Below are positions 772 through 58,870 of a stretch of DNA of 64,000 nt, in pieces; the first letter of the stretch is position 1; each line of letters begins with the position of its first letter. Origin of the DNA: an uncultured Pseudomonadota bacterium. GTDB taxonomy: Bacteria; Babelota; Babeliae; Babelales; RVW-14. The notes beneath the pieces were generated by a model. That model was not told the origin of the DNA. It saw only the letters and a list, made by a program, of their open reading frames with translations, and did no database searches. The translations under genes and the position numbers were made by a program. Where the stretch lies: positions 27,225 through 91,224 of the forward strand of contig CAZGPI010000002.1 of NCBI GenBank assembly GCA_964527595.1, written 5' to 3'.

Positions 772-1716
772 ATGGAGAGTAGGCTATTATCGGTAGTTAT
801 TCCGCTCTTTAATGAGGAAGAAAACATTGTCCCTCTTTGTGAGGAACTGATTCCGATTCTAAAAAAACTAAAAAATTTTACATCATATGAATTGGTAATG
901 GTCAATGACGGAAGTACCGACACTTCACTTAACCTTCTTAAGTCGCTTGCCGAAAAAGATAAGAATGTTAAGGTAATTTCATTCACCCGTAATTTTGGGC
1001 ATGAGTCTGCTACCTATGCTGGAATTATCAATGCTAAGGGTGATGCTGTTGTGCTTATGGATGCTGATCGCCAAGATCCACCTGAACTTATATTTGAATT
1101 CGAAAAAGAATTTTTGCAAGGATACGATATTGTTTTTGGTCAACGAACAAAGCGCTTGCGTGAAAGTTGGCTAAAAAAAGTGACATCAAAACTTTTTTAT
1201 CCACTATTTAAATTTCTTACCAAGGTTGATATGCCTCGCAATGTCGGGGATTTTTGTTTATTGAGCCGCCGCGCCGTTAATATGATTAAGCAACTTCCCG
1301 AACGTGCCATTTTCGTGCGCGGACTTATTTATTGGTTGGGTTTGCCTAAAAAAGCGGTACCATTTATTCGGCGTGAGCGTGGTGCCGGGACAACAAAATA
1401 CAATTATTTCAAGCTAACCGTTTTTGCGTTGGAAAATATTATCTCATTTTCAACGACTCCTATTTATTGGCTCATATTTTTTTCACTGGTGGTTATTGGG
1501 CTTTGTTTAGTTGGAATGACGATGGCTCTTTTGATGCATATTTTCGGATTAGTGGTTATGACAGGATGGACGTCATTGATTATCTGCATGTTGTTTTTAT
1601 TTGCGACAACATTGTTTTTCGTTGGCTTAATTGGTTTGTATGTTGGAAAAATTTTTCAAGAAGTAAAGCAGCGCCCTATCTTTTTGGTGGGTGAAAAAAT
1701 TAACATTGATATTTAG
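772..1716 (+). CDS. GT2 polyprenyl-phosphate glycosyltransferase (ArnC/GtrB/Dpm1-like) with C-terminal TM helices
   Basis: LSVVIPLFNEEENI, VNDGSTD and MDADRQDP (DxD-type) motifs, plus two hydrophobic C-terminal helices. Start moved to ATG 772, which has GGAG 9 nt upstream; the ORF-track start is 712. The stop codon TAG 1714-1716 is part of a repeat copy. Confidence 0.8.
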   Translation: MESRLLSVVIPLFNEEENIVPLCEELIPILKKLKNFTSYELVMVNDGSTDTSLNLLKSLAEKDKNVKVISFTRNFGHESATYAGIINAKGDAVVLMDADRQDPPELIFEFEKEFLQGYDIVFGQRTKRLRESWLKKVTSKLFYPLFKFLTKVDMPRNVGDFCLLSRRAVNMIKQLPERAIFVRGLIYWLGLPKKAVPFIRRERGAGTTKYNYFKLTVFALENIISFSTTPIYWLIFFSLVVIGLCLVGMTMALLMHIFGLVVMTGWTSLIICMLFLFATTLFFVGLIGLYVGKIFQEVKQRPIFLVGEKINIDI

Positions 1717-1741
1717 GGAGGGGTGGGAGGGAACGGCCCAC
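1714..1741 (+). repeat. GC-rich stem-loop repeat, short form, copy 1
   Basis: TAGGGAGG-G-GTGGG-AGGGAACGG-CCCAC. Its TAG is the stop codon of the GT2 gene. The next ATG (1752) is 10 nt after the stem. Confidence 0.9.
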
Positions 1742-1751
1742 TTAAATAATT

Positions 1752-3524: not shown

Positions 3525-3541
3525 AGGATTAAGGAAGAGTA

Positions 3542-4726
3542 ATGAAAAAAGCTTTAATTACAGGAATCACCGGACAAGATGGTTCGTACCTTACCGAATT
3601 TCTTCTTTCAAAAGGGTATGAAGTTCACGGAATTATTCGTCGAGCTTCTTCTTTTAATACTCAGCGGATTGACCATATGTATGTTGATCAACATGAGCAA
3701 GAAGCTCGATTCTTTTTGCATTATGGTGATTTATCTGATGCCGGATGTCTTCAAGACATTGTGAGTGCGGTAATGCCTGACGAGGTTTATCACTTGGGTG
3801 CGCAATCACATGTTAAAGTCTCCTTTCAGATGCCCGAATTTACGGCGAATGTGACGGGACTTGGAACCTTGCGTTTATTAGAGACACTTCGTCGATGTGC
3901 TCCTAATGCAAATTTTTATCAGGCATCGTCATCAGAAATGTTTGGTGCTGCGGGTGCGCCCCAAAATGAAAAGACGCCTTTTTATCCACGTAGTCCATAT
4001 GCCGTTGCGAAAGTCTATGCTTATTGGATTGCAGTGAACTATCGAGAAGCTTACGGCTTATTTGCGTGTAATGGCATCTTGTTTAATCACGAGAGCCCTC
4101 GCCGCGGCGAAACATTTGTAACAAGAAAAATAACTCGAGCATTGGTCAATATCATTGCTGGCAAGCAAAGCGTTCTTTATTTAGGTAATCTTAATGCCAA
4201 GCGTGATTGGGGTTTTGCTCCTGAATATGTTGAAATGATGTGGTTGATGCTGCAGCAAAATACACCAAATGATTATGTGGTTGGCACAGGGCAGAGCCAT
4301 ACGATTAAGGAATTTGTTGAAGCTGCATTTGCTTACGCTGGCATTGAGCTTGCATGGGAAGGTGATGGCGTTGACGAACGAGGTATTGTAAGTGCAATAA
4401 ATTCTCCGGGGAGGGGCGGGAGGGAACGGCCCGCATCAATTAATAATATAAAAGTCGGCGACGCGTTAATAAAAATCGACCCCCGCTATTTCAGACCAAC
4501 AGAAGTTGATCACTTACAGGCCGACATCTCTAAAGCAAAAGAACTTCTATGCTGGCAACCACGCGTAACCTTTCATGAGCTGGTTAAAATAATGGTTGAC
4601 TACGACCTCAAATTTGCTGGTCTTGAGCCGGTTGGTGATGGTATTGCAATAGGCGAAAAGAAGGATTTTACCTATACATCACATTCGGTAACATGGACTT
4701 ATCATGAACATGAAAATTGTGTATAG
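3542..4726 (+). CDS. gmd: GDP-mannose 4,6-dehydratase
   Basis: [41 protein letters not shown] and [17 protein letters not shown] are all classic Gmd motifs. The gene carries an in-frame repeat-derived insertion ([12 protein letters not shown]) in a variable loop. Confidence 0.95.
4408..4435 (+). repeat. GC-rich stem-loop repeat, short form, copy 2 (in-frame inside gmd)
   Basis: GGGGAGG-G-GCGGG-AGGGAACGG-CCCGC-A, translated as GRGGRERPA. Confidence 0.9.
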
Positions 4727-4745
4727 AAAGGGATAATGCGCACAT

Positions 4746-4798
4746 TAGGGAGATGCAGGAGGTTGAGCCTGCCCCGGACTTTGATCCGGGGGCCTGCA
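4746..4798 (+). repeat. GC-rich stem-loop repeat, long variant, copy 3 (gmd-fcl spacer)
   Basis: TAGGGAGA-TGCAGG-AGG...inner hairpin CCCCGGA-CTTTGA-TCCGGGG...G-CCTGCA. The fcl ATG is 13 nt after the outer stem. Confidence 0.8.
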
Positions 4799-4811
4799 TA
4801 TATAAAGAATA

Positions 4812-5891
4812 ATGAATAAAGATGCAAAAATATATATAGCAGGTCATCAAGGTCTTGTTGGCTCCGCACTTATGCGAGCCTTACACATTCAAGGGTACCA
4901 TAACGTTGTAACGCGCTCGTTTGCCGATCTTGACCTACGCAACCAATTAGCCGTTGATGAATTTTTCAAGCTTGAGCGGCCTGAATATGTTTTTTTAGCG
5001 GCGGCAAAAGTTGGTGGTATTTTAGCTAATAATACCTATAAGGCCGAGTTTATTTACGATAATCTTATGATTGCTGCAAATGTTATTCATGCTTCGTACA
5101 AACATGGCGTCAAAAAATTACTCAACCTTGGGTCATCATGTATTTATCCAAAAAATGCACCACAACCACTCAAAGAAGAATATCTTTTAACCGGACCTCT
5201 CGAGCCAACAAATGAAGCTTATGCAATCGCAAAGATCGCAGCAATAAAATTGTGCCATTATTACAATGAGCAGTATGGAACTAATTTTATATCGGTTATG
5301 CCGACAAATCTTTATGGTCCAAATGACAATTTTAATTTAGAAACGGCGCATGTTTTGCCAGCGCTTATGCGGAAATTTCATCTAGCTAAAATGCTTCGCG
5401 ATGAAAATTGGGAAGCGATAAAACAAGATCTTAAATCTTACAAACTTGGGCACGGTCTAGATGAAGGCATAAAATTTGAGGATAAAAGATCGGTGATTGA
5501 TGTTTTGGCGAAAATTGGAATTACCAAGGCGAGTGTTACGTTATGGGGTTCGGGTAAGCCATATCGTGAGTTTTTGTATGTGGATGATTTGGCTGATGCA
5601 GTTCTTTTTTTGATGGAAAATAGTGATACCAATGTTGTTGGTGAGATTATAAACGTTGGTGTTGGTACTGATATTAGCATTAATACCTTAGCTCATCTCA
5701 TTAAGGAGGTTATTCATTTTGCTGGCGAAATTATATACAACAGTCAAAAACCAGATGGAACTATGCGCAAGCTTCTTGATGTAACCAAGATGGAAATACT
5801 TGGGTGGAGGGCGAAAATATCCTTAGAGCAAGGAATAAGAGACGTTTATGCTAGGTATTCAATAAAATCATCCTCAACTAGAAAAAAATAA
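4812..5891 (+). CDS. fcl: GDP-L-fucose synthase (GDP-4-keto-6-deoxymannose 3,5-epimerase/4-reductase)
   Basis: [39 protein letters not shown] and [11 protein letters not shown] motifs. Sits directly after gmd. It is the long form, with an extra segment of about 38 aa before VTLWGSG. Confidence 0.9.
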
Positions 5892-11697: not shown

Positions 11698-13464
11698 TCA
11701 TTCGTGAGCAACAAACTGTTGCTTTTCATAATCCAAGGTAATTACTAAGGGTTTTTGTTTAAGATGTTTTTGATCAAAGGTAAGGGTTAGGTCGGTGACA
11801 ATACCTAAAACACTCTGATGAACAGTTTTCGCACCGAGAGATAGATAATTATCAGATAGCGAAAAGTTTATTTTTTGTGGATTAGTTGATGTTAAGCGAA
11901 CGCTTGTTGGTGTATTGGTTATAGTAAAGTAATTTTTTGTATAGTAGGGTGCGCAGCGCATATACCAGCCAGCATGTTCTAAGACATTTGAATTATTCTG
12001 GGTGAGCATAGTTGATGGATCATAATAAACAGGATTTGTTGGAGGAGTTAAAAATAACCAGGCAGCTTGTTCGATTCCGGTACCAAATCCGTCGAGTGGA
12101 AACGCAAGAAAACATAAAGGGCGTGTACCTGAGGTGATTCGCTGGTCATTGGCGAGAGCCAAAAAGGCCTTCTTCATCGTAAAAAGTTTTGTTTCGCGGG
12201 TGCGTAAGTTTGTGTAGGTAAAGAAGGCGCATAGGCCAATAAGGGCAGTACATACAATAGTAATTATTACGTTTATGTATTTGCGGATAGGGATAGGGCG
12301 TTTCCCCCTGAAAAATGAATATATGCTTGTACTTAAAACTGCGAACAAGACAAAAAGAAATGGAGAGGCTTCGTGAAAATACCGTGGGCTATAGGCGCCA
12401 AAAAGTGATGGCCAGAGCATGAGTAGATAGCTAGCGCCGAGGAATAAAAGTAGGAATTTATGTTTATTGCGCCAAAAAAGTATTGCAATAACGAGTGTGG
12501 CAATAAGTAATAAGCTAAGGCGCAGACATTTATGTCCATAAGGGAGCCATGAGAGTGAGAGTGAATCGTAGATACAAACAAGGACTTCGTTAAAACGTGA
12601 AGTTATTTTTGAAAAAATAGTGAAGGCTGAGGATATAGTAAAATTATAGAGCAGGCCGCTCCAGCCGTCGCCCAGGTGGCTATTGCCGGCAGGCCCTCCT
12701 GCACCTCCCTGGAAAAGTTTATGAAACGGATAAAGCCATATGCGAATTGCAAGATATCCGAGTGCTGCTAAACCGTGGGCAACTGGTGCCCATGATATTT
12801 TTTTCTGATACAACCAGCAGCCGCCAAAAAGTATTGCAGGAAATACTATTGCTGTTTCACGGGTAAATAGAGCAATCGTGAAAAACAGTGTCGAAAAAAG
12901 TAAGTAAATGTATTGGCGTCGATCTAGAAAATAGTTGAGCATGATTATGGTAAGCATAAGCAACAAGACATTCAGATAATATTGAAAATTTGCTGGTGCA
13001 CCAAAGCGAAAACCAATTTGTGGGTGCAGGGCAAAAAGAAGCGCAAAAAAAAGTGCAGACGGCCAACCAGAAAACCATGTAAGGATATTGAAAAGAATGG
13101 TTGTATTGAGTGCGTGCAAAAAAACGCTTACCAAATAATAAGCGTAAGCATTAAGGCCGAAAAGCCAATAAGCACAAGCAAAATAAGCGCAATGAATTGG
13201 GCGAAAATAAACACTTAAGAAGTTTAACTTATGAATAGTTGCTGCGCCATACGGTGTATAAAATTGGTGGTGCGATGGGTAAAAGTATTTGTTAACGTTG
13301 CCTTCGATAAAATGGCTCCAAAGCGTTTGCCAGGATTGCATTGTTTTGCCCAGAGCAATGCATGAAAAATCATCACCGTTAAACCACCAGCTTGAGAAAG
13401 GGAGGCCTAAAAAGCAAAAAACAAAGAAAAAAAGCGCAAACGAAATGATAACTTTTTTATTCAT
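11698..13464 (-). CDS. GT-C-like polytopic membrane glycosyltransferase, family A paralog 1 (PMT/TMTC-like F-x-x-DD-[FW]-x-x-I loop motif)
   Basis: At least 10 TM segments. The first loop has WWFNGDDFSCIAL. Paralogous to 13467..14933 and 36169..37824, sharing the LGLPF..W.F..DD start and the SPRY/SSRY region. Contains an in-frame long-form repeat (QGGAGGPAGNSHLGDGWSGL). Confidence 0.6.
   Translation of the reverse strand: MNKKVIISFALFFFVFCFLGLPFSSWWFNGDDFSCIALGKTMQSWQTLWSHFIEGNVNKYFYPSHHQFYTPYGAATIHKLNFLSVYFRPIHCAYFACAYWLFGLNAYAYYLVSVFLHALNTTILFNILTWFSGWPSALFFALLFALHPQIGFRFGAPANFQYYLNVLLLMLTIIMLNYFLDRRQYIYLLFSTLFFTIALFTRETAIVFPAILFGGCWLYQKKISWAPVAHGLAALGYLAIRIWLYPFHKLFQGGAGGPAGNSHLGDGWSGLLYNFTISSAFTIFSKITSRFNEVLVCIYDSLSLSWLPYGHKCLRLSLLLIATLVIAILFWRNKHKFLLLFLGASYLLMLWPSLFGAYSPRYFHEASPFLFVLFAVLSTSIYSFFRGKRPIPIRKYINVIITIVCTALIGLCAFFTYTNLRTRETKLFTMKKAFLALANDQRITSGTRPLCFLAFPLDGFGTGIEQAAWLFLTPPTNPVYYDPSTMLTQNNSNVLEHAGWYMRCAPYYTKNYFTITNTPTSVRLTSTNPQKINFSLSDNYLSLGAKTVHQSVLGIVTDLTLTFDQKHLKQKPLVITLDYEKQQFVAHE
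12651..12712 (-). repeat. GC-rich stem-loop repeat, long form, copy 4 (in-frame inside GT-C-like gene)
   Basis: The reverse complement reads CCAGGGAGGTGCAGGAGGGCCTGCCGGCAATAGCCACCTGGGCGACGGCTGGAGCGGCCTGC. It has 3 differences from copy 6 over about 58 nt. Confidence 0.9.
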
Positions 13465-18751: not shown

Positions 18752-19834
18752 TTATAGGGAGGTGCAGGAGGGCTTGCCGGCCATAGCCACCTGGGCGACG
18801 GCTGGAACGGCCTGCGGTAGATTATTGATTTTATTTTCTTGAGCAAAATAGTTTTTATACCAAGCTACTGTTTCTTCAAGCCCTTTGCGAACGCCGTATT
18901 TTGCATGCCATCCAAGAACGGTATGTGCTTTTTTTGAGCAAAGATGTTGGGCTGGAATTTCATTGCAGGCCATGTTTTTGATTATTGGGGTAAGGTGGTT
19001 AGCGTTCATGAGATCCAAAATTTCATGCACCATTTCAACAACGGTGAATGGGTGGTCGGTACTGAAGTTGAAACATTGGCCGACTATTAACGGATTTTCC
19101 ATTGCTTGGGCAAGGGTAAGGTAAGCGTCAACCACGTCTTTTACATAAATGTAATCGCGAACAAATTGGCCATTTGATCTAATTACAGGGGCTTGGTTAT
19201 TAAGAATAGCTTTGATGGTTCCAGGTATTATGCGATTAAGGTGAAAATCACCGCCACCAAAAAAATTTCCACATCGTGTTACGCAAACCGGAAGTTTAAA
19301 CGTATGGAAATACGATTGAGCTATCAGGTCGGTGCAGCTTTTTGAAACATCATAAGGGTGTTGGCCTTGCAGCGGAGCATCTTCGGTATAGGGTAATTTT
19401 TCTTGTGCTCCATAGGCTTTATCGCTTGAAGCAACAACGATGCGTTTGACCCATGGGCTTAAGCGGCAAGCTTCCAAAAGGTTCCATGTTCCTTCGATAT
19501 TTGACCTGAATGTTGAGATCGGTGAGCGATTTGCATAACCGACAATTGCCTGGGCGCCTAAGTGGAAAACTGTTTCAATATCACTTTCATTCAGAACGCG
19601 AGTGAGTAGGTTTTGATCAAGAAGGTCGCCGATAATGACGGATGTTTTTTTATCCAACTGTTGCTGAAAAAATACTGAATGTGAAATGAGATCACGTATT
19701 AAAACAAAAACGTTGGCTTCTTGCTCAATAAGCTCTTGAACAAGCCAGGGGCCTAGTAATCCAGTTGCTCCGGTTACTAAAACATTTCTGTTTTTCCAGT
19801 ATTTTTTTTCATTTGTATAATTTTCCACGAGCAA
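18752..19834 (-). CDS. rfbG: CDP-glucose 4,6-dehydratase
   Basis: WKNRNVLVTGATGLLGPWL, ASSDKAYG and HPYDVSKSCTDL (YxxxK). Sits directly downstream of the cytidylyltransferase. The C-terminal tail is encoded by a long-form repeat. Confidence 0.85.
   Translation of the reverse strand: MLVENYTNEKKYWKNRNVLVTGATGLLGPWLVQELIEQEANVFVLIRDLISHSVFFQQQLDKKTSVIIGDLLDQNLLTRVLNESDIETVFHLGAQAIVGYANRSPISTFRSNIEGTWNLLEACRLSPWVKRIVVASSDKAYGAQEKLPYTEDAPLQGQHPYDVSKSCTDLIAQSYFHTFKLPVCVTRCGNFFGGGDFHLNRIIPGTIKAILNNQAPVIRSNGQFVRDYIYVKDVVDAYLTLAQAMENPLIVGQCFNFSTDHPFTVVEMVHEILDLMNANHLTPIIKNMACNEIPAQHLCSKKAHTVLGWHAKYGVRKGLEETVAWYKNYFAQENKINNLPQAVPAVAQVAMAGKPSCTSL
18755..18817 (+). repeat. GC-rich stem-loop repeat, long form, copy 6 (rfbG / GT2 junction)
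   Basis: TAGGGAGGTGCAGGAGGGCTTGCCGGCCATAGCCACCTGGGCGACGGCTGGAACGGCCTGCGG. This equals the short form with about 33 nt inserted between AGGG and AACGG. Confidence 0.9.
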
Positions 19835-22927: not shown

Positions 22928-24340
22928 CTAAAAGCGCTTAACTTCCTCAAGGTCATCAAAGTGGTGTTTTTCACCTTTGATAAGATAATAGTTTTCGTGA
23001 CCCTTGCCCAAAAGCGCAATAATCGAATGCGGTTGAGCATTTTGTGTCGCAAGGGTTATCGCTTTTTTGCGGTCAAGTTCAACAATAACAGAAGTCATTT
23101 TTTCTTTTGGAATGCCGGCAACAATTTCATTGGCAATTGCTTGACGATCTTCGTCGCGCGGATTGTCGTCGGTAACAATAATAAGATCAGCATAGTCTGC
23201 CGCAAGTTTGCCCATTACCGGGCGCTTGGTGGTGTCTCTATTACCGCCGCAACCAAAAATCACAATAAGATGCGATGTTAAAGGGCGTAATGTTTTGAGC
23301 ACTTCGTCAAATGCTCCTGGCTTATGAGCAAAATCGACAAATGCCTTGGCGCCATTTTTAAGGGTGTGCATTTGTAGGCGTCCTGGAACTCCAGCAAATG
23401 TTGCAAGTGCTTGAGTAATTATATTTGAAGTTACGCCGAGCTCTGAACAAATCAATTTGGCCATACAAACATTGTAATTATTGTATGCTCCAACGAGCGC
23501 CGGGCATAAGGGAGGTGCAGGAGGGAACGGCCTGCAAGCTTCTTCTAAATAAAAGATATGATGCTGTGTTTGCGATTCGCTTGTTTCTTGTTGCTCAAAG
23601 CCGAACGCAATAACTTTTTGCTTTAATCCATTTTCATCAAAATACTCAACCGCTTTTTTGCCCCATGGATTATCAATGTTTATAACGGCAATGCCATTTT
23701 GTTTTAATTGCTTGAATAGCGCAGCTTTGGTTTGAAAATAGTGCTCCATGCTTGGATGAAAATCCATATGTTCTGGGCTAAGATTGGTGAATCCAACAGC
23801 ATCAAATTCAATGCCGTGGATCCGTGAAAGTGCGATAGAATGTGAGGATATTTCCATGATAACGTAATCGATTTTCTCTTTTACGCACTCGGCTAAAAAC
23901 ATTTGAATATAGTCGGCCGCGGGGGATGTTAAGGTGCTTTCTTCTTCTTTGTCGCCAATTTTGTTTTTAATAGAACCAATGAGCGCTGTTTTATACCCGG
24001 CCTGGTTTAGCAGATGGTCAACAAGATAGGTTGTTGTGGTTTTGCCAGCGGTGCCGGTAATTCCAATAAATTTGAGTTTTTGTGCGGGATTATTTAAAGC
24101 TTGAGCCGCATAAGCGGCAAGTGCTTTGCGTGTATCATCGACAAAAATGATTTGAATGTGTGCAGGGATGTCTTTAGGGATGTATGATTTGTCTACAATA
24201 ATCGTTGTCGCACCGCGGTTAATGGCTTTTGGGATGTAAGTAGCTCCATCTTCTTTATGGCCTTTTATTGCAACGAACGTTGACCCCGGTCCGACGTGGT
24301 TGGTGTTACAAGTTACAGGATAAATAACAGGAATAAACAT
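22928..24340 (-). CDS. murE: UDP-N-acetylmuramoyl-L-alanyl-D-glutamate--2,6-diaminopimelate ligase
   Basis: GITGTAGKTTT P-loop, EISSHS, the TNLSPEHMDFH region and the DDNPR motif (VTDDNPRDED), which is typical of the DAP-adding MurE. Carries an in-frame repeat-derived insert (ACRPFPPAPPLCP). Confidence 0.9.
   Translation of the reverse strand: MFIPVIYPVTCNTNHVGPGSTFVAIKGHKEDGATYIPKAINRGATTIIVDKSYIPKDIPAHIQIIFVDDTRKALAAYAAQALNNPAQKLKFIGITGTAGKTTTTYLVDHLLNQAGYKTALIGSIKNKIGDKEEESTLTSPAADYIQMFLAECVKEKIDYVIMEISSHSIALSRIHGIEFDAVGFTNLSPEHMDFHPSMEHYFQTKAALFKQLKQNGIAVINIDNPWGKKAVEYFDENGLKQKVIAFGFEQQETSESQTQHHIFYLEEACRPFPPAPPLCPALVGAYNNYNVCMAKLICSELGVTSNIITQALATFAGVPGRLQMHTLKNGAKAFVDFAHKPGAFDEVLKTLRPLTSHLIVIFGCGGNRDTTKRPVMGKLAADYADLIIVTDDNPRDEDRQAIANEIVAGIPKEKMTSVIVELDRKKAITLATQNAQPHSIIALLGKGHENYYLIKGEKHHFDDLEEVKRF
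23507..23536 (+). repeat. GC-rich stem-loop repeat, short form, copy 7 (antisense, in-frame inside murE)
   Basis: TAAGGGAGG-TGCAGG-AGGGAACGG-CCTGCA, read on the opposite strand as CRPFPPAPPL. Confidence 0.9.
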
Positions 24341-26546: not shown

Positions 26547-27533
26547 ATGAGCAAGACGGTATTAGTTACTGGTGGGGCTGGCTATATAGGATCGCATACC
26601 GCTTATCTTCTTCATAATTGTGGCTATCAAGTTATTATCCTAGATAATCTATTATACAATCAACCATTTGCCTGTCCATGGGCAACCTTAATTAAGGGAG
26701 ATTTTGCAGATTATGGCATATTGGATGCTCTATTTGCGAAATATCCTATAGACGTTGTTATGCATTTTGCTGCATTTATCGAGGTTGGACAATCGGTTAT
26801 TCAACCTCAGCGTTTTTATGAAAACAATGTTATAAAAACCATTCACTTACTGAATAAAATGCTTGAACATGGGGTGAGTAAAATTGTGTTTTCATCAAGC
26901 TGTGCGGTATATGGACCGCCTCATTATGTCCCGATAGATGAAAATCATCCTTTTGCTCCAATGAGTCCATATGGAAAAAATAAATTAATTATCGAATATG
27001 TATTACAAGATTATGCACAGGCATATGGGTTGCAATATGTTTCATTGCGCTATTTTAATGCTGCCGGTGCATTAATTGATAAGAATCTTGGGGAGTGGCA
27101 TAACCCAGAAAGCCATGTAATCCCCAATGTTATGCGGGCACTTTTACTTGATAAAGAATTTTACATATTTGGTAACGATTATGAAACGGTTGATGGTTCA
27201 TGTGTTCGTGATTATGTACATGTGCTTGATATTGCCCAAGCTCATGTACTTGGGGCTGAATATTTTCATGCGCATTCAGATTCTCAAATTTTCAATTTGG
27301 GGTCTGGTGTCGGTTATACCGTAAAGCAACTTATCAAGGCCGCTGAAAAAATTGGTGGCAAAAAAATCAAGATTACTATAGCCGATAGACGTCCGGGTGA
27401 TGCCAAAATACTTGTGGCAGACAATGCAAAAATAAAAAAAACACTTGGATGGCAGGATAAGTATTCAGATTTGAATACGATAATGCAGTCGGCTTATGAG
27501 TGGGAAAAAAGGAGATTAAGCGATGGAGCATGA
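26547..27533 (+). CDS. galE: UDP-glucose 4-epimerase
   Basis: MSKTVLVTGGAGYIGSH, SSSCAVYG, SPYGKNKLIIE (YxxxK) and LRYFNAAGA. ATG 26547 has GGAGAG upstream; the ORF-track N-terminal extension from 26457 is unlikely. Confidence 0.9.
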   Translation: MSKTVLVTGGAGYIGSHTAYLLHNCGYQVIILDNLLYNQPFACPWATLIKGDFADYGILDALFAKYPIDVVMHFAAFIEVGQSVIQPQRFYENNVIKTIHLLNKMLEHGVSKIVFSSSCAVYGPPHYVPIDENHPFAPMSPYGKNKLIIEYVLQDYAQAYGLQYVSLRYFNAAGALIDKNLGEWHNPESHVIPNVMRALLLDKEFYIFGNDYETVDGSCVRDYVHVLDIAQAHVLGAEYFHAHSDSQIFNLGSGVGYTVKQLIKAAEKIGGKKIKITIADRRPGDAKILVADNAKIKKTLGWQDKYSDLNTIMQSAYEWEKRRLSDGA

Positions 27534-28923
27534 AGTAAAAATTGGTGAGATTATAGCATCGAATAAAAAATTCTTGTTTATGCTTTTCATTTTAGCCTTT
27601 GTTATTCGAGCAGCTGTTTTTATAGGGTATTTAGGCAAAAATGAAAACTATTGGCAGGTTGATTCTCAGACGTATCATCTTGTTGCTCAGCAAGTTGCGC
27701 AAGGAAATGGACTTGTATCGGCCGACGGAAGCCCGCATTTTTATAGGCTTCCTGGGTATCCTGTTTTTCTAGGTTTTTTTTATTACTTGTTTGGCGTTGA
27801 TACGAAAAAGGTTTTATGGCCGCAAATTGTTGTTGCTTCGGCAATTCCTATTTTGGTTTTTTTGCTATCAATGATTTTATTCCCCGGGGCGCTTATTATT
27901 GCTAAATGTGCTTCTTTGTGGACCGTTTTTCACCTAGGGTTTATCTTATTCGCCGGTTTTTTTATGACTGAATCGCTCTTTATTTTTTTATTTTTACTGT
28001 TTTTGATTTTTTTCTTTTCTGGTAGGTATCTTTTTTGGGCTGGAACCTTTTTGGGGTTAGCCTCGCTCTTTCGGCCCGTTGGGCATTATCTCTTGGTTCT
28101 TGCTGGTATTATGCTCATTTTTTCACATGATTGGCTAAGGCATAAAATTATCAAATTTGCAACGTTGGCAGGAGCCTGGCTTATACCCGTTTCTTTTTGG
28201 TTGATAAGAAATTTTGTGTTAACGGGGTACCTTTTTTTTCATACCTTGCCAGGCGGCCATTTTTTGTATCTATCGGCGGCTCGTGTTGCGATGCATACTC
28301 AAAATTGCTCTTATCAAGAAGCTCGGCAGCATTTGCATGATGAAGTGCATCAGAATTTGGCAAAAAAAGAAGCTGAGCTTGGGCGACCCTTGTTTGAGAT
28401 TGAAAGCTGTAACGTGCATGAACAGTTGGCAATTAAGTACTTTAAGCAGAGCCCTTTAATCGCCCTGAAAAATTGGTGTACTGATATGTTTCGGACGATG
28501 TTTTCGCTGCATTCGGCTGAGCTTTTATATTTAGACGCAGGGCATAAAACGATCGATTATTTTAAAAAAGAACGTTCAGGCTGGAATATGTTTGAGCGTT
28601 ATTTGTTTCCACAAACCGAGTCTTCGCTGTTAAGGGTTATTGTTTGGAGTGAAATATTTCTTTTTATTTTGATGTTAATCGGGTTCCTAGGATATATGAT
28701 TAGAGCTCTCTTATGTGCTTTGCGAGGAAAGCGAGAGTCTTTAGTCAATTTGGGTAAATGCCTACCATTCATAGCGCTTTTTATTGTCATAGCCCTTTCT
28801 GGTGGTTACGCGCGTATGAGGTTGCCCATTGAACCGTTGGCGATTATTTTATCCATGGCTGGATGGTTTGGTCTAAAAAAAAGCAGGAGGAGGTTAGTTG
28901 AACCAAAATCGTGCATGGACTAA
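27523..28923 (+). CDS. GT-C membrane glycosyltransferase, family B paralog 1 (ArnT/PMT_2, GT39/GT83-like)
   Basis: VDSQTYHLVAQQVAQGNGL...FYRLPGYPVFLGFF first-loop signature, at least 10 TM segments, and a conserved C-terminal GGYARMRLPIEP. Confidence 0.7.
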   Translation: MEHEVKIGEIIASNKKFLFMLFILAFVIRAAVFIGYLGKNENYWQVDSQTYHLVAQQVAQGNGLVSADGSPHFYRLPGYPVFLGFFYYLFGVDTKKVLWPQIVVASAIPILVFLLSMILFPGALIIAKCASLWTVFHLGFILFAGFFMTESLFIFLFLLFLIFFFSGRYLFWAGTFLGLASLFRPVGHYLLVLAGIMLIFSHDWLRHKIIKFATLAGAWLIPVSFWLIRNFVLTGYLFFHTLPGGHFLYLSAARVAMHTQNCSYQEARQHLHDEVHQNLAKKEAELGRPLFEIESCNVHEQLAIKYFKQSPLIALKNWCTDMFRTMFSLHSAELLYLDAGHKTIDYFKKERSGWNMFERYLFPQTESSLLRVIVWSEIFLFILMLIGFLGYMIRALLCALRGKRESLVNLGKCLPFIALFIVIALSGGYARMRLPIEPLAIILSMAGWFGLKKSRRRLVEPKSCMD

Positions 28924-30265
28924 ATATCTAAGTATTATTCCCTTATTACTCGTTATTTTTAGTTGCGCTTTTTTAATAAGGTTTATTTTTTTTATAATAT
29001 TTCTTATTAAAAACCCTTGCATGCTTGCTTTTGATTCAAAGCATTATCACGATATGGCCGTTCAATTGGTACATGGGTATGGTTTTATGTCGGTTAATGG
29101 GGTGCCTTTTTTTTATAGATTGCCCGGATATCCGCTTTTTTTGGCCGCTTGTTATAAGTTGTGTCACCTAAATGTTATAGCTACTTTAATGGTACAACTT
29201 TTTTTCGGGTCTTTGATTCCTGTTTTAATGTATGTTTTTTCTTTAATTATATTGCCAACCCGGCGACTGGTTGCTTTTGGTGCGGCTTTTTTTGCTTGTT
29301 TGCACGTTGGATTTATTGTCTATTCTGGCCTTATATTATCAGATATGATGTTTTTGCTTCTTTGGATGTTTTTTTTAATATGTTTTTTTTATGCGTTAAA
29401 AAGCAAAAGGATTTTGATCTTTCTGTTTGCCGGGGTAGCTCTTGGTATCGCGTCATTAATAAGGCCAATGGGTTTACCACTTTTTTTGGTGGTATTGCTT
29501 ATTATTTTTCTTTCTAGGCGAGCCTTTTTGGTTAATCTTAAGAGTGGTCTTTTTTTATTCTGTGGATGGATAAGTATTGTTGGGTGGTGGATTGTAAGAA
29601 ATTTCTTGCTCACTGGATATTTATTTTTCCATACACTTTCAGGGCCTCATTTTTTAAACCATTCTGCGGCCCGTATAATTATGATGAAAAATAATGTTTC
29701 TTATGAGCAAGCAAAGGGTACTGCATACCAACGATTTGATGAATTGATTGCAGAAAAAGAGTTGATTGAGAATCGTCAGCTTCTTGAAATTGAAAGGGTT
29801 ATTGTCGCCGAGAAACTTACACTGAGTGTTATGCTTTCAAATCCAATGCTTGCGATAAAACATGCCATGGGAAATGTTTTTAAAACATGCTTTTCCTTAT
29901 ATTCTTCAGAGCTTTTATTTATCGATTCTGGTGGCCAGCTGCCTCCATATAGTTGCAATAGAACGCTCAAGGATATGATAATGCGATTTTTAATGCCAAA
30001 TATTAATGCTGGTTATCTGCGATATATTATTTGGGGAGAGATTGCGTTGTATTTGCTAACGTTAATTGGTTTTTTTTGTTTTGTTATAAACTCATTTTGG
30101 TTTCGCCGTAAGTTATTTTTGGTATTAAGCAGTTTGTTGGTAATGATCTTTTTTGTGGGCATAACGTTTGCCTGTGGTTATGCCCGATTTCGCTTACCCA
30201 TTGAGCCATTTTTGATCGTTTATGCATGTGCGTTTTTGGTTGATTTTTTTAAAATTAAGGTTTAG
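28898..30265 (+). CDS. GT-C membrane glycosyltransferase, family B paralog 2
   Basis: FDSKHYHDMAVQLVHGYGF...FFYRLPGYPLFLAACY and a C-terminal CGYARFRLPIEP. TTG start with AGGAGGAGG upstream. Overlaps the previous gene by 26 nt. Confidence 0.7.
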   Translation: MNQNRAWTKYLSIIPLLLVIFSCAFLIRFIFFIIFLIKNPCMLAFDSKHYHDMAVQLVHGYGFMSVNGVPFFYRLPGYPLFLAACYKLCHLNVIATLMVQLFFGSLIPVLMYVFSLIILPTRRLVAFGAAFFACLHVGFIVYSGLILSDMMFLLLWMFFLICFFYALKSKRILIFLFAGVALGIASLIRPMGLPLFLVVLLIIFLSRRAFLVNLKSGLFLFCGWISIVGWWIVRNFLLTGYLFFHTLSGPHFLNHSAARIIMMKNNVSYEQAKGTAYQRFDELIAEKELIENRQLLEIERVIVAEKLTLSVMLSNPMLAIKHAMGNVFKTCFSLYSSELLFIDSGGQLPPYSCNRTLKDMIMRFLMPNINAGYLRYIIWGEIALYLLTLIGFFCFVINSFWFRRKLFLVLSSLLVMIFFVGITFACGYARFRLPIEPFLIVYACAFLVDFFKIKV

Positions 30266-30279
30266 TCGTAGGCGTTTTG

Positions 30280-31665
30280 ATGTTGTTAAGGATTGCTAGT
30301 CAAAATAAATTATTTTTAAGTCTTTTATTTCTTTTTTCTTTTTCGCTAAATTTGGCGTATCTATTTTTTTTCACAACCAAAACGTCGCATTTTGTTTGTC
30401 AAGATTCAAGCCAGTATGATAGCCTTGCCAAACAGATTTACGATAACAATGGAATTGTTGATGCTAATGGTCAGCCAGCGATTTCCCGGGTTCCCGGGTA
30501 CTCTTTTTTTCTCGCGGGCTGCTATAAGATTTTTGGATATAATCATGAACGTGCGATGATACTACAAAGTTTTTTGGCTTCTATGATTCCAGTTTTAACC
30601 TTTTTGTTGAGCTTGATCTTATTTCCTAACGTATTGTTATTGGCAAAAATTAGTGCTTATTTTATGGCAATGAGTAATGGCTTAATGCTTTATGCATCAA
30701 TGGTTATGTCAGAAGTTGTCTTTACTGTTTTTTTTCTATTATTTTTATTGTTTTTTATTTTAAGATTGCGCTTATTTTGTTCCGGTGGATTTAAGGAGAA
30801 TGCATCAGGAAAAATCTTTTTCCTTGCTGGGTTGTTTTTAGGAATTGCGTCATTAATTCGGCCGGTTGGACATTTTTTGATTATAGCCGCGTTGTTTTTG
30901 CTTCTTCTTTCATCTTTTGATTTAGCAAAAAAACTGAAGTATATGGTTTTATTGCTGGTTGCCTGGGGCTTATTTGTTTTACCGTGGCTTCTAAGGAGTT
31001 ATTTGCTGACTGGGTCGATTCTTTTCCATACAATGCCCGGCAATCATTTTTTAGATTTTCTTGCGCTTGAATCAATAAGCTATGCGCGCCAATGGACGTT
31101 TGGGGAAACAAAAGTTTTTTTAGAAAAAGAGGTTGCCAAAGAATATGCCGTGACTAAGATTCCAATTAATGAAAAAAACTCCGCAGCACGCGATATGTAT
31201 ATTAAGTTAGCTGTAGCTAAGAAATATATTTTGATGTACCCAATGCAAACGATAGAGCGATGTTTTGCTAATATCTTAAAAACAATTTTTGGTTTAAATG
31301 TTAGTTTCGTTTTACATAAGCTTGTAAAATTTCCTAGCTATGGTGGGAAAACCAGCTTTATCGAAAAAATAGTTTTTTTCCTTTTTCCTTGCACGAATGA
31401 TAAGTTTATTTGGTGCATTGTTTACTTTGAATTGCTTTGGTTGATAGTTCTGTTGTTGGGCTTCGGTGGTTTTTTGGTACAAAGTTTTTTCAATACAATC
31501 TATTTATGTAATTGTTTGAAGATTTTGCCGTTTATCGCTGTTATGTTGTTTTTATCGTTAGGCTCTGGGTTTGCTCGCCTAAGGGTGCCGATTGAGCCGC
31601 TTATGATTATTTTTTCAATGCATTTTTGGCTTAATTTTTTGAGTGCTGGTAGATTAAAACATTAA
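30280..31665 (+). CDS. GT-C membrane glycosyltransferase, family B paralog 3
   Basis: QDSSQYDSLAKQIYDNNGI...ISRVPGYSFFLAGCY and a C-terminal SGFARLRVPIEP. Third tandem copy. Confidence 0.7.
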   Translation: MLLRIASQNKLFLSLLFLFSFSLNLAYLFFFTTKTSHFVCQDSSQYDSLAKQIYDNNGIVDANGQPAISRVPGYSFFLAGCYKIFGYNHERAMILQSFLASMIPVLTFLLSLILFPNVLLLAKISAYFMAMSNGLMLYASMVMSEVVFTVFFLLFLLFFILRLRLFCSGGFKENASGKIFFLAGLFLGIASLIRPVGHFLIIAALFLLLLSSFDLAKKLKYMVLLLVAWGLFVLPWLLRSYLLTGSILFHTMPGNHFLDFLALESISYARQWTFGETKVFLEKEVAKEYAVTKIPINEKNSAARDMYIKLAVAKKYILMYPMQTIERCFANILKTIFGLNVSFVLHKLVKFPSYGGKTSFIEKIVFFLFPCTNDKFIWCIVYFELLWLIVLLLGFGGFLVQSFFNTIYLCNCLKILPFIAVMLFLSLGSGFARLRVPIEPLMIIFSMHFWLNFLSAGRLKH

Positions 31666-43007: not shown

Positions 43008-44309
43008 TTATTCGACTATTTGGCCAGTTTCAACCAATTGGCTGTTTTTAGTGGATACATACATAGCTACAAGTATCCAGACGCCGACAATACCAAGAGA
43101 GATTAATGATCCGTAGAACATTAGGCTCGCCATGTTGGTAAAGACTGCGTTTATACTAGAACCGGCAGCTTTTGAGGTGCGGCCACCAAATCCGTCAATC
43201 CAGCTTTTGGCTTTAAATTTAACGTCTTTGCTGGTTGGGATGTACATGATTTCTTTGCAAGGGTTATTTAATGCATAGCTTAAACCCTTAATGGCAACCA
43301 TTGCGCCAAAAAGAACCCAGAGGGTAGGATTAAACCATACATAACAAATAACGGCACCAACGGCTATTGGGAATGCAATTAAAGAAAAACGTAGGCCGAA
43401 GTTACGGATGATATAACTGGTTCCAACCAACGCGAAAACAAACGCAAGTAAGTTAGCGCACTGACCATACAAACCAAGAAATTCGGTAACTTTTTCGGTT
43501 GAATGATACACTTCGTCTGCAATGAACTTCATTTGGTAATCGATAATTGTTCCGATAACCTCGTAAAGTGTTGCGATACCAAGAATACCAAGAAGGTATG
43601 GTTGCGAAAAGAGCAAACGCAAACCTTCAGTGAAGCCGGTTGATTTCTTTTTCTCGGCGAGAGGTACGGCGGCGACTTGTGGTTGTGAGCGGATAAACCA
43701 GTACACCATCATAGGAACCATTGATACACCAATAGCAATAATAACCGAAAGCATAGGCATACCAATTGCGGTTGCATGTTTTGCAAATTCTGGGCCGGCA
43801 ATAGAACCGATTTGTGCTCCAGAAATAACCAATCCGTAACCTCTTTTTGCCGAAGCTGAATCGGTTGTGCTGTTCAAGAACGACCAGAAAAGTGCTGGTA
43901 ATAGGGAACCAAAACTTTCAATGGTCAAATAAATTACCCAACCAAAAATACGGTATTTGTTTGGTGTTGTGTTAGCAACGCCAATGGTAGGATGTGCTAA
44001 GAAATATGCTGCAACGGCAAAAAACACAACATAAAAAGCTGGCAAGATGTAAAGAAGCTTATGTTTTTCAACCATGTCGACGAGTTTTGAATAAAGCAAA
44101 ATGAGTGGAACTAAGAAAAGAACCGAAGCCATCTTGGCGTATGGAATATAAGTTTTGCCAACGATGTTCATAAAAAGTGCGTCTTTAAGTGGACGCATAA
44201 GCCAGTAAGTACCAATAAGAAATAAGAATGTTCCGGCTAATAGCCCAAATTTCTTATATTCTTCTGTTGATAAATCACCCCATAACCAACGGACAACCTT
44301 GCAGGCCAT
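43008..44309 (-). CDS. TLC/Npt-family nucleotide (ATP/ADP-type) transporter 1
   Basis: LMRPLKDALF, IESFGSLLPALFWSFLNS...SAKRGYGL and YALNNPCKEIMYIPTSKDVKFKAKSWIDGFGGRTSKAAG parallel the Rickettsia/Chlamydia Tlc motifs I recall ([48 protein letters not shown]...GGRLGKSGG). Confidence 0.85.
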   Translation of the reverse strand: MACKVVRWLWGDLSTEEYKKFGLLAGTFLFLIGTYWLMRPLKDALFMNIVGKTYIPYAKMASVLFLVPLILLYSKLVDMVEKHKLLYILPAFYVVFFAVAAYFLAHPTIGVANTTPNKYRIFGWVIYLTIESFGSLLPALFWSFLNSTTDSASAKRGYGLVISGAQIGSIAGPEFAKHATAIGMPMLSVIIAIGVSMVPMMVYWFIRSQPQVAAVPLAEKKKSTGFTEGLRLLFSQPYLLGILGIATLYEVIGTIIDYQMKFIADEVYHSTEKVTEFLGLYGQCANLLAFVFALVGTSYIIRNFGLRFSLIAFPIAVGAVICYVWFNPTLWVLFGAMVAIKGLSYALNNPCKEIMYIPTSKDVKFKAKSWIDGFGGRTSKAAGSSINAVFTNMASLMFYGSLISLGIVGVWILVAMYVSTKNSQLVETGQIVE

Positions 44310-44416: not shown

Positions 44417-45751
44417 TTAATCGATAAGCGTTTTGCTGGAGATAACTTTTTTATAGACGTTACCAATTAAGCTTGCCGAAAAGACCCAAACAGCGATTAT
44501 GCCTAGGCAGGTGGCGCCCACGAGACCGGTTGCTGGGCCAATAAAGCTGCTAATTCCTGAGCCGGTTGCCTTTGCAAAACGCATGCCAAACATGTCAATC
44601 CATGCTTTTGATTTATATTTTATATTTTTTGAGGTTGGAATATAGAGCACTTCTTTGGCTGGTTGGTAGAGTGCGTAATTGAGTGCCTTTGCAATGAGCA
44701 TGACATAGAAAATTGTCGATAGCGACGGATGAATGATGTATCCAATAAGTGATATGCCAATAACAAGAGGGAAGGCAATTAGGCAGAATTTGATTCCAAA
44801 CTTGCGTTGAAAATATGAAGTTCCGAGAAGTCCGAATAAACAGGCAATAACTTGGATTGCAAGTGCAAATTCAAACAAAAACTTATTGACCATTCCGGGG
44901 TCGGCATAAGTACTCTTAACCATGAGCGACATTTGAAATCCCATAAGTGTAGTAAGCAGTTCTTGAAAGAAAATAAGAACAAAGATTCCAGTAACATATG
45001 GTCGCGTTAATAATACTTTTAGGCCGTCGAGAAAACCAACTTTTGGAACATCGACCGTTTCGTCTATTGGTGCATGCGTTTGATAACCGCTGAGGTGTTC
45101 ATCACCAACAAAGTGCTGCAGAATGAATACAACGACGGCAACCATAAGAAACATTGAAATTGAAATAAGAGCGATAATGGGGACTCGTTGGGCATATTTT
45201 GTTGTATCGTACGATAGATAGCTGCCAAGCAAGGTGAATAAAACGCCGCCAAATTGTGTGCCAAATATAATGAGACCATAGCCTTTTTGCGCAGATTCTG
45301 GTGTTGTAACGTCATTAATAAAAGACCAGTAAAGCGAGACCATTAATGAAATATAGCTTTCAACAAACAAGTAAAACGCCCAACCAATATAGCGCTCTGG
45401 ACTTACGGTTGTGTTTTGTAGGCCGATGACGGGGTGATAAAGATAATAGACGAGGATGAGTCCTATAAAGCCATAGAAACCGATAAGGATATAGATCATT
45501 TTTTCTTTAGAAAAAATGTCGATAAGCTTTGAGTAGATTAAAACGAGAGGGAAAAATAAGCCAAGAGAAGCCAATTTTACTTGAGGCAAATATAAAGGGC
45601 CTACCATATTAATAAATATGCTGTCTTTTAAGGTTTTGAGAGGCCAATAAGAGCCAATAAGAAAAAAGAAGCCAATAGCAAGAAGGACAAATTTGATAAG
45701 CTCTTTGCCTTTTAGGTTGCCCCACAATGCTCGAATAATTCTATATCCCAT
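44417..45751 (-). CDS. TLC/Npt-family nucleotide transporter 2
   Basis: Paralog of 43008..44309, with WPLKTLKDSIF, VESYISLMVSLYWSFIND...SAQKGYGL and YALYQPAKEVLYIPTSKNIKYKSKAWIDMFGMRFAKATG. Confidence 0.85.
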   Translation of the reverse strand: MGYRIIRALWGNLKGKELIKFVLLAIGFFFLIGSYWPLKTLKDSIFINMVGPLYLPQVKLASLGLFFPLVLIYSKLIDIFSKEKMIYILIGFYGFIGLILVYYLYHPVIGLQNTTVSPERYIGWAFYLFVESYISLMVSLYWSFINDVTTPESAQKGYGLIIFGTQFGGVLFTLLGSYLSYDTTKYAQRVPIIALISISMFLMVAVVVFILQHFVGDEHLSGYQTHAPIDETVDVPKVGFLDGLKVLLTRPYVTGIFVLIFFQELLTTLMGFQMSLMVKSTYADPGMVNKFLFEFALAIQVIACLFGLLGTSYFQRKFGIKFCLIAFPLVIGISLIGYIIHPSLSTIFYVMLIAKALNYALYQPAKEVLYIPTSKNIKYKSKAWIDMFGMRFAKATGSGISSFIGPATGLVGATCLGIIAVWVFSASLIGNVYKKVISSKTLID

Positions 45752-50538: not shown

Positions 50539-50565
50539 GGGAGGTGCAGGAGGGAACGGCCTGCA
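50536..50565 (+). repeat. GC-rich stem-loop repeat, short form, copy 8 (secA-murI spacer)
   Basis: TAAGGGAGG-TGCAGG-AGGGAACGG-CCTGCA. Its TAA is the secA stop codon. The murI ATG is 12 nt after the stem. Confidence 0.9.
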
Positions 50566-50577
50566 ATACAATTAATC

Positions 50578-51384
50578 ATGTCTTTATTTGTTAAGCCAAT
50601 TGGTATGTTTGATTCAGGGGTAGGCGGCCTTGGAATTTTCCAGGCAGTCGCCCATTTATTGCCAAGCGAAGATATAGTCTATGTTGCTGGCAATAAATAC
50701 ATGCCTTTTGGCCAAAAAACTACTGAAGAAGTTCAGCAAATTTCTGAAAAAATTGTCCAATTTCTTATTGATAAACACCAGGTTAAGATGGTTGTTGTTG
50801 CGTGTAATACGGCAACCATTACAAGTATCGCTTATTTACGTTCGAAATTTACAATTCCTTTTGTTGGGGTGGTGCCTGTTGTTAAACCAGCATGTGAACA
50901 AACCAAAACGGGCTGCGTGGCAATTTTATCAACACCGCTAACCGCCGGTGGTGCGTATATTCATGAGCTTATTACTAAGTTTGGAGATGGCGTACGAGTC
51001 TTGAGTATCGGAAGTCCGGGGCTTGCTGAATTGGTTGATTCGGGGATGGTTAATACTCCAGAAATGGAATTATTATTGCGTAAGTTTATCGCTCCGGCAT
51101 TAGAAAATAATGCTGATATTATTGGCTTATGTTGCACTCATTATTCGTTTGTTCGCGAACAATTACAAAAAATTGTTGGCCCGTTGGTAACGATTGTTGA
51201 CTCAAACGATCCGGTTGCTCGTCAGGTTAAACGAGTTTTGGCGGCGATGCCCGATGGGCTAGTTCCAGAAGGTCGACAACCAAAATATCAATTCTATGCG
51301 ACAAAAGATGCAAAGAATTTTGAGATTGTTGCTCAACAGTTAATAGGAGATCTTGTTGCCGGAGTTATCGAAATTGATTTGTAA
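50578..51384 (+). CDS. murI: Glutamate racemase
   Basis: IGMFDSGVGGL, VVACNTAT and LCCTHYSF motifs. Confidence 0.9.
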   Translation: MSLFVKPIGMFDSGVGGLGIFQAVAHLLPSEDIVYVAGNKYMPFGQKTTEEVQQISEKIVQFLIDKHQVKMVVVACNTATITSIAYLRSKFTIPFVGVVPVVKPACEQTKTGCVAILSTPLTAGGAYIHELITKFGDGVRVLSIGSPGLAELVDSGMVNTPEMELLLRKFIAPALENNADIIGLCCTHYSFVREQLQKIVGPLVTIVDSNDPVARQVKRVLAAMPDGLVPEGRQPKYQFYATKDAKNFEIVAQQLIGDLVAGVIEIDL

Positions 51385-53633: not shown

Positions 53634-53663
53634 TAGGGAGGGTATGGGAGGGAACGGCCCACA
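53634..53663 (+). repeat. GC-rich stem-loop repeat, short form, copy 9
   Basis: TAGGGAGG-GTA-TGGG-AGGGAACGG-CCCA-CA, between the PQ-loop gene and the NurA-like gene. Confidence 0.85.
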
Positions 53664-54891: not shown

Positions 54892-54993
54892 ATACATAAC
54901 GATTCTTTTGGGTAAATTTGCAAAATTTACAAATCATTTGATATCTTAAATTTGTCATTTTTACAATTTGGGCTATTAAGGAGTCGGGGTGTT

Positions 54994-58841: not shown

Positions 58842-58870
58842 TAGGGAGGTGCGGGAGGGAACGGCCCGCA
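58842..58870 (+). repeat. GC-rich stem-loop repeat, short form, copy 10 (hisS-ychF spacer, antisense to transcription)
   Basis: TAGGGAGG-T-GCGGG-AGGGAACGG-CCCGC-A. Confidence 0.9.

Follow-up and report, generated by a model that had tools for sequence, protein, structure and literature searches.

The gene for GDP-mannose 4,6-dehydratase (gmd) on the 64-kb stretch of contig CAZGPI010000002.1 analysed here (hereafter the window) carries at 4409-4438 an in-frame block that is very probably a copy of a dispersed family of GC-rich hairpin repeats, acquired long ago and tolerated in a variable loop of the enzyme. The initial annotation had pointed to a repeat copy at this site; that observation is confirmed and its interpretation supported. 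In addition, the phenomenon extends across the family, the insert dates far back and is common to two species, and its DNA is conserved beyond what mere tolerance would leave. The features of the gene on which the argument turns are the following.

3542..4726 (+): gmd, GDP-mannose 4,6-dehydratase, open reading frame (ORF) of 394 aa, based on the ORF list, the 1DB3 match, Foldseek and synteny
4409..4438 (+): in-frame insertion of 30 nt, 10 codons, aa 290-299, based on codon alignment with empty-site orthologs
4386..4443 (+): run of 58 nt, 100% identical to the gmd of a sister metagenome-assembled genome (MAG), comprising the insert, 23 nt upstream and 5 nt downstream

The motif GGGGAGGGGCGGGAGGGAACGGCCCGC occupies positions 4408-4434 of the window, and the repeat core within it (GGGAGGKGCRGGAGGGAACGGCCYGC, 26 nt) corresponds to 4409-4434; the copy is read in phase 0 as GRGGRERPA, exactly as had been annotated. 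When GGGGAGGGGCGGGAGGGAACGGCCCGC was searched with up to three mismatches, further matches were found at 1715 and 58843, and none was obtained in 100 dinucleotide shuffles. The core is identical at 26/26 positions to four unrelated MAG loci (L009, L018, L021 and L038) and, likewise at 26/26, to the orthologous gmd site of locus L037. The inserted block is 77% G+C in a gene of 43% G+C, and six of its ten codons (GGG twice, AGG twice, CGG and CCC) are among the least-used synonymous codons of the genome. In codon-aware alignments, the codons extra with respect to loci L002 and L004 are GGG AGG GGC GGG AGG GAA CGG CCC GCA TCA, and eight codons are extra with respect to L001. A block of 27 nt, present or absent among close orthologs, had been proposed; the presence and absence were borne out, and the length is 30 nt.

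The closest database homologs of the window Gmd are 384-386 aa long with 82-84% amino acid identity, and no database record was found for the exact window protein. Three of these homologs were recovered with their DNA and all are syntenic, the gene order ABC transporter-gmd-fcl being common to the window and L001-L004. In the closest syntenic orthologs the loop is 8-10 residues shorter and retains no trace of the motif, and no similar loop of equal length was found among them; in some distant Gmd homologs the loop is equally long or longer, with an unrelated sequence. Locus L002 carries a perfect repeat copy right after the gmd stop codon, yet its gmd loop is empty, and since L002 thus hosts the family elsewhere, its loop represents a true empty site. 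On the other hand, the sister MAG CAZLQB01 (L037, protein P0121, 89% amino acid identity) has the identical insert at the identical position. The most parsimonious account of these sequence comparisons, which comprise two filled and four empty sites, would be a single insertion in the common ancestor of the window genome and CAZLQB01, after the L002 lineage had split off. Being common to a second species, the insert is old.

The ORF at 3542..4726 is a bona fide Gmd. It matches the E. coli enzyme (1DB3) with E=1.5e-140, and it combines the short-chain dehydrogenase/reductase fold, the Gly-rich NADP motif, the Ser/Thr-Glu and Tyr-xxx-Lys set and a clear likeness to solved GMD structures. The NADP motif, the SSSE/Y153/K157 catalytic residues and DPRYFRP are all present and unbroken, and G8-G14, S129-E132, Y153 and K157 are invariant among 98 Gmd homologs. 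An AlphaFold2 model built from these 98 homologs reached a mean predicted local distance difference test score (pLDDT) of 86.9 and a predicted template modelling (TM) score of 0.88, and Foldseek aligned it with human and Naegleria GMD at TM 0.94 and a root-mean-square deviation of 1.6-1.8 Å; a first model from 14 sequences (pLDDT 54.6) had been too poor and was replaced by it. Residues 290-295 are the sole internal segment with pLDDT below 50, so that the insert falls in a poorly predicted loop flanked by strands that are modelled with confidence (280-286 and 308-312). Among the 98 homologs, 21-48 residues separate these strands, with a mode of 25, and the window protein has 34. Additionally, Arabidopsis MUR1 lacks nearly all of the query segment 270-309, which makes this loop sub-structure accessory. 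The model thereby shows the insert at the predicted tip of an accessory beta-hairpin, a part of the fold that differs naturally in length from one Gmd homolog to another, and both the low pLDDT and the length variability indicate that the loop is probably surface-exposed. The annotated short variable loop ahead of DPRYFRP, the preserved frame and the intact flanking motifs were all recovered in this way.

Because the insert is exactly 30 nt long and its core is free of stop codons in all six frames, the gmd frame stays open. Compared with the sister ortholog carrying the same insert, gmd shows a dN/dS of 0.045 at a dS of ~1.5, and the gene has therefore long been under strong purifying selection with the insert in place. 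The insert is presumably translated as the predicted peptide, and Gmd presumably still works. The earlier suggestion that the enzyme tolerates the insert is thus upheld by the dN/dS value; as an account of a peptide merely tolerated it is incomplete, since the DNA is conserved far above its surroundings. In fact, the two gmd genes are 80% identical overall and 54% identical at third positions, and the 58-nt identical run around the insert has a codon-shuffle P of ~2e-4, the next-longest identical run being 28 nt.

Architecture and copies of the repeat family

The data comprise 64 kb of the window genome and ~160 kb of MAG tiles, and the census of the window was performed with looser pattern searches and an nhmmer profile. 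Nine copies were found in the window and ~40 in the window and related assemblies together. The 26-nt core consists of a 5' GGGAGG head, a 5-bp stem (GCRGG/CCYGC) and a 9-nt loop, AGGGAACGG. In a profile of 34 distinct short copies, positions 0-25 are nearly fixed, as GGGAGG K GC R GGAGGGAACGGCC Y GC, and the loop is invariant. A weak preference for T-Y-N-R is seen just upstream of the core and for A and A/T-rich sequence just downstream, the other flanks being uninformative. The inverted arms lie within the core, at positions 7-11 and 21-25, and the GGGAGG head takes no part in the pairing. Stem variants are distributed as GCAGG/CCTGC in 25 copies, GCGGG/CCCGC in nine, GTGGG/CCCAC in one and GTAGG/CCTAC in one, and only four copies have a stem with one mismatch. 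Long forms contain a second hairpin of 33-36 nt nested in the loop of the 26-nt element. The repeat stands out as a block of 77% GC in a genome of ~40% GC, and a weak strand bias with respect to GC skew was observed, with 27 copies on the G-rich strand and 14 on the other. At gathering thresholds, Rfam returned only two tRNAs in the whole window, and nothing around the insert at E values up to 1; a promoter and terminator scan of 3400-5000 gave counts equal to those of shuffles and nothing at the element. Besides the gmd copy, the window contains these copies.

1716..1741 (+): short copy; the TAG stop of the upstream GT2 gene overlaps its first G, and the ATG of the ABC transporter gene follows 10 nt later
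4748..4800 (+): variant copy that immediately follows the gmd stop codon, within the gmd-fcl spacer, with two nested hairpins in its loop (fold z = -3.07)
12651..12709 (-): long form of 59 nt, in frame within a 588-aa ORF, read as QGGAGGPAGNSHLGDGWSGLL
18757..18815 (+): long form of 59 nt, overlapping the 3' end of an epimerase gene (18752..19834) in antisense
23510..23535 (+): short copy, antisense within murE (22928..24340, -), read as CRPFPPAPP
50539..50564 (+): short copy, directly after the TAA stop of secA and 13 nt before the ATG of a racemase gene
53635..53662 (+): degenerate copy after a PQ-loop gene (nhmmer E=0.0012)
58844..58869 (+): short copy between ychF and hisS, antisense to the two genes

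The family is not restricted to intergenic positions. Among 39 distinct copies, 15 (38%) lie deep in long ORFs, with at least 60 open codons on each side, and they occupy every phase (sense 0/1/2 = 3/5/2; antisense 0/1/2 = 1/1/3). Such six-phase reading yields unrelated peptides, for example MQAVPSCTSL. The host genes include those for MurE, UvrC, UvrA, Ddl, transketolase, biotin carboxylase, a beta-lactamase-fold protein and a GT4 glycosyltransferase, and several of the intragenic MAG copies fall between mapped Pfam domains or at their edge. In murE, the copy is absent from 13 homologs, in which it corresponds to a somewhat longer stretch that it replaces. The epimerase gene at 18752..19834 reads through its long form up to its own stop codon. 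The length differences observed within ORFs are all multiples of three, and because the core is also stop-free, intragenic insertions can survive. These data show that the family occupies gene loops and inter-domain linkers in both orientations and in all frames.

A different arrangement is seen in front of genes. For seven copies, the start codon of a long ORF follows after 10-13 nt, the spacer consisting of A and T only; several of the seven touch the preceding stop codon or overlap with it. The start-proximal copies are as follows.

Window 1716-1752: start-proximal copy
Window 50536-50580: start-proximal copy
L002 1701-1750: start-proximal copy
L010, L012, L021 and L029: start-proximal copies

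This placement, together with the GGGAGG head, is suggestive of a portable stop-plus-ribosome-binding cassette, as far as position and motif can indicate one.

Several other features of the window and of the related loci were recorded. At the MurE loop that holds the repeat in the window, the homolog P0125 carries a different Gly/Ser/Pro-rich insertion (AGHSPGSSPGQALRPLP), which hints at other repeat families in relatives. Another GC-rich palindrome, CCTTGGTGGTTCGCCGGCTCGCCCACCAAGG, lies at 55536-55566 within an 847-aa ORF (54952..57495) without a Pfam match; CCAAGG...CCTTGG hairpins like it adjoin elements in the MAG loci L017, L040 and L042, and it probably represents a second repeat family. 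A GC-rich island at 10440-10463 was considered as a fragment of the long form and set aside, as it probably encodes the native E-G-x-G motif of a GT1 glycosyltransferase. Downstream of gmd, a GDP-fucose-synthase-like gene (4812..5891) encodes 359 aa with an Epimerase domain match in two stretches; its orthologs encode 310-365 aa, and a separate insertion, not GC-rich, may be present there. Three tandem paralogous membrane-protein genes occupy 27523..31665 with a period of 1390-1397 nt, two of them with weak PMT_2 glycosyltransferase matches.

Turnover and conservation between genomes

In a scan of species-representative genomes, two MAGs that bear the label 'uncultured Pseudomonadota' (CAZLQB01 and CAZBUZ01) proved to contain many copies, and single matches in GC-rich genomes were taken to be chance. 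The repeat is also present in one contig of the Joint Genome Institute (JGI; L044) and in L002 and L003. With the core pattern, a viral scan gave no match and a metagenome scan gave one, the latter being non-exhaustive, as it missed the perfect copy in the JGI-derived L002.

Comparison of orthologous sites revealed both persistence and turnover. The copy at 50539 is also found at the orthologous site in L010, and the CAZBUZ01 ortholog of the copy at 1716 (L021) shows a compensatory stem change, GTGGG/CCCAC versus GCGGG/CCCGC. The copy at 4748 is absent from the sister MAG (L037) and from L001, while in L002 this spacer contains a plain short copy; the degenerate copy at 53635 is absent from the sister MAG at L010. 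Long and short forms alternate at three orthologous sites, with a difference of 33 or 36 nt: the 12651 site is occupied by the 26-nt short form in the sister MAG (L016), an in-frame difference of 33 nt, and the 18757 site by a short form in CAZBUZ01 (L006). Further long-form sites were noted at L019 5640 and L027 4749. In uvrA, an intact antisense copy in CAZLQB01 (L043 878) corresponds to a decayed remnant in CAZBUZ01 (L025 ~5600-5650, -), in which ~19/26 positions are identical by eye and stem complementarity is lost. The decay of this copy demonstrates that intragenic copies can erode.

Where copies are shared, the core is much better preserved than its surroundings. At six shared sites, the cores differ at 5/156 positions (3.2%), as against 278/1129 (24.6%) in the 100-nt flanks, which are mostly coding (Fisher p = 4e-12), so that orthologous cores are ~8 times better conserved than flanks. 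Two of the five core differences form one compensatory stem pair. Since the core is conserved in every reading frame, it is the nucleic acid, not the peptide, that is under constraint. The flanks behave differently according to location. In the 588-aa ORF (12645-12740, -), as in gmd, they are 100% identical to CAZLQB01 over ~27 nt upstream and ~8 nt downstream of the copy, even with saturation at synonymous sites, and the same ORF contains another identical run, of 47 nt, without the repeat; shared intergenic sites show no flank identity.

Explanations for the origin and persistence of the repeat

The preferred explanation is that the family spreads, or spread, as a small non-autonomous mobile element similar to repetitive extragenic palindromic (REP) sequences or to GC clusters, and that intragenic copies would be the survivors at sites where length, frame and position were harmless. 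A sequence-specific factor, perhaps an enzyme that mobilises or maintains the element, perhaps one of the host's own, would recognise head, stem and loop and keep the copies uniform, and the near-invariance of the core would then reflect constraint or homogenisation of the nucleic acid rather than selection on the peptide. Several points weigh against this explanation. Mobility is deduced solely from distribution and polymorphism, because no convincing target-site duplication was found at four filled-versus-empty sites and no terminal inverted repeats were discernible there; likewise, none of the 45 ORFs scanned in the window has a transposase-like domain or one resembling the REP-associated tyrosine transposase (RAYT). 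Short-form hairpins are no more stable than shuffled sequences (z ~0 to -1.1), so that the hairpin structure is supported by covariation and not by folding energy. The CAZBUZ01 contig starts within gmd, ~290 nt upstream of the insertion site, and its 3' half of the gene is missing; the related sequences are all MAG or metagenome contigs, from which copies per genome are extrapolations, and translation of the insert is a prediction. Above all, the strong conservation between orthologs is unlike that of a decaying selfish insertion and points to a function or to ongoing homogenisation.

This conservation lends some weight to a broader reading, possible although on balance doubtful, in which the hairpin would be an actively maintained nucleic-acid signal, homogenised by a factor or used by the host, possibly as an intergenic stop-plus-ribosome-binding cassette, with a constraint that overrides protein evolution, the sequence being kept in six frames within essential genes of species saturated at synonymous sites, and with the flanks of coding sites frozen as after homing-like co-conversion. 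A signal selected by the host itself, such as a protein- or ribosome-binding motif coupling a stop codon, a Shine-Dalgarno sequence (GGGAGG) and a hairpin, is rather unlikely. It would account for cores ~8 times better conserved than mostly coding flanks, for the loop kept unchanged in the 34 profiled short copies and for the seven copies that stand 10-13 nt before start codons, several touching the upstream stop; where a copy lies further from the start codon, the gene's own AGGAG-like site follows it. Intragenic copies would in that case serve as a pause, mRNA-stability or binding site. However, the copies face either way with respect to transcription and occupy each of the six frames, some are missing from the sister genome without replacement and one has decayed, and no promoter, terminator or Rfam match was obtained in the scans described above. 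In addition, unless the hairpin is folded, ~30 nt separate the GGGAGG head from the start codon, more than a standard Shine-Dalgarno sequence allows. With a cassette role, selection on the intergenic copies would be accounted for, whereas that on the gmd copy would not, and no function could be put forward for a copy placed mid-gene in gmd.

The identical flanks raise the question of homing-like gene conversion of empty by filled alleles, with co-conversion of the flanks, by which the gmd copy would be shared through recent transfer and not through common descent. At both intragenic sites shared with CAZLQB01 the flanks are 100% identical in genes that are 73-80% identical overall, and the 58-nt run in gmd would seldom arise by chance (P ~2e-4). 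This process is nevertheless improbable, as there is no known candidate for the endonuclease, sequences diverging by 20% would have recombined over very short tracts, shared intergenic sites lack flank identity and the element-free 47-nt run in the 588-aa ORF indicates patchy conservation that is independent of the repeat. The two GGAGG motifs of Shine-Dalgarno type and the hairpin within the insert are features that would suit translational bypassing, as in byp elements or T4 gene 60, or removal from the RNA; skipped inserts need no frame preservation, though, whereas this one is exactly 30 nt and stop-free, 15/15 intragenic copies keep the frame open and the long forms exceed the short ones by 33 or 36 nt, which makes skipping of the insert very improbable. 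Finally, that the loop is native to Gmd and resembles the repeat by coincidence, or that it is an assembly artefact, is hardly credible. Loop length does vary among Gmd homologs, and some loops are longer than that of the window, but the core recurs at 26/26 positions at unrelated loci, three of the closest orthologs have no insert, and zero chance matches are expected, as the shuffles indicated; an artefact is rejected because the same insert occurs in an independently assembled MAG. An old copy of the hairpin repeat, tolerated in a variable loop, remains the preferred reading of the gmd insert.

Known repeats, host lineage and meaning

The initial annotation had drawn a parallel with Rickettsia palindromic elements (RPEs), which are dispersed palindromic repeats of an obligate intracellular bacterium, many of them inserted in frame in unrelated housekeeping genes at positions compatible with the fold (PMC10969869). 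The hairpin repeat resembles them in behaviour, since it also lies in frame in unrelated genes (gmd and MurE; 15/39 copies, including UvrA, UvrC, Ddl and transketolase), and in behaviour only. RPEs measure ~150 bp, and each family encodes a conserved peptide (PMC10969869), whereas the present core is 26 nt long (the insert 30 nt, long forms 59-62 nt). It is thus about five times shorter, falls below the ~100-150 bp of such elements and cannot match a 150-bp element over its length. Additionally, unlike an RPE, it is read in six phases into unrelated peptides, is conserved as DNA and occurs in a host of a Dependentiae-like phylum.

Yeast mitochondrial GC clusters offer a second comparison. These are GC-rich palindromes of 30-80 bp in an AT-rich genome and are mostly non-coding (PMC4464245). 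They also occur within a protein gene (rps3/VAR1), where they alter the product's size, and they show sub-classes defined by indels (M and V classes), tandem arrays and presence/absence polymorphism (PMC4464245). The hairpin repeat fits this description as a GC-rich palindrome in an AT-rich genome that is optional at a site, has nested forms and is sometimes coding, although the likeness is an analogy only: the clusters are fungal and organellar, and the sequences show no sign of a relationship. Moreover, in nine aligned yeast mitochondrial DNAs GC clusters are conserved at just 13/282 positions (PMC4464245), whereas copies of the bacterial hairpin persist across a dS of ~1.5.

With REPs and their inverted doublets (REPINs), the repeat shares an imperfect palindrome within 20-40 nt, a conserved 5' head, a high copy number and species-specific consensus variants. 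REPs are maintained over long periods. They are, however, essentially extragenic, whereas 38% of the hairpin copies lie deep in ORFs; the head of the hairpin repeat is GGGAGG and not GTAG, and no RAYT gene, which REPs typically flank, is found within the 64-kb window. REPs also often form inverted doublets, and the hairpin copies are all singlets, the nearest pair (4409/4748) being 340 nt apart in the same orientation. Among bacterial miniature inverted-repeat transposable elements, enterobacterial repetitive intergenic consensus (ERIC) sequences in their intragenic form and Coxiella QMITE1 are non-autonomous repeats that at times lie within ORFs and add peptide segments (PMC10969869). The hairpin repeat is likewise found within ORFs, but these two measure at least 100 bp and possess terminal inverted repeats as well as target-site duplications, neither of which was seen in it. 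In contrast to byp elements, which break the frame or carry stops, no intragenic hairpin copy interrupts its ORF. No description of such repeats in Dependentiae was found in the literature.

The host looks like an intracellular member of the Dependentiae (TM6), judged solely from the relatives of its MurE and from its transporters. The named MurE homologs, with ~50% identity, belong to 'Candidatus Babeliales/Dependentiae', and two adjacent genes for TLC ATP/ADP transporters lie at 43008..44309 and 44417..45751 (-). Such transporters are typical of intracellular energy parasites. Babela massiliensis, a cultivated member of the Dependentiae, has three ATP/ADP translocases (PMC4378268). Given this placement, the related MAGs appear to be mislabelled as 'Pseudomonadota'.

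In-frame colonisation of genes by palindromic repeats is best known from the RPEs of Rickettsia, and the same outcome would here have arisen independently in a lineage that resembles an obligate intracellular parasite of the Dependentiae/TM6 type. Odd Gly/Arg/Pro-rich loop insertions in the proteins of such MAGs may therefore have their origin in repeats and not in adaptation. Strain and species history in uncultured Dependentiae could be followed with the short and long forms and the filled and empty sites as markers. The family also provides a compact system for asking whether repeats are purely selfish or maintained, and its interest would be higher if the constraint at the nucleotide level were to reflect a function or a homing-like mechanism.

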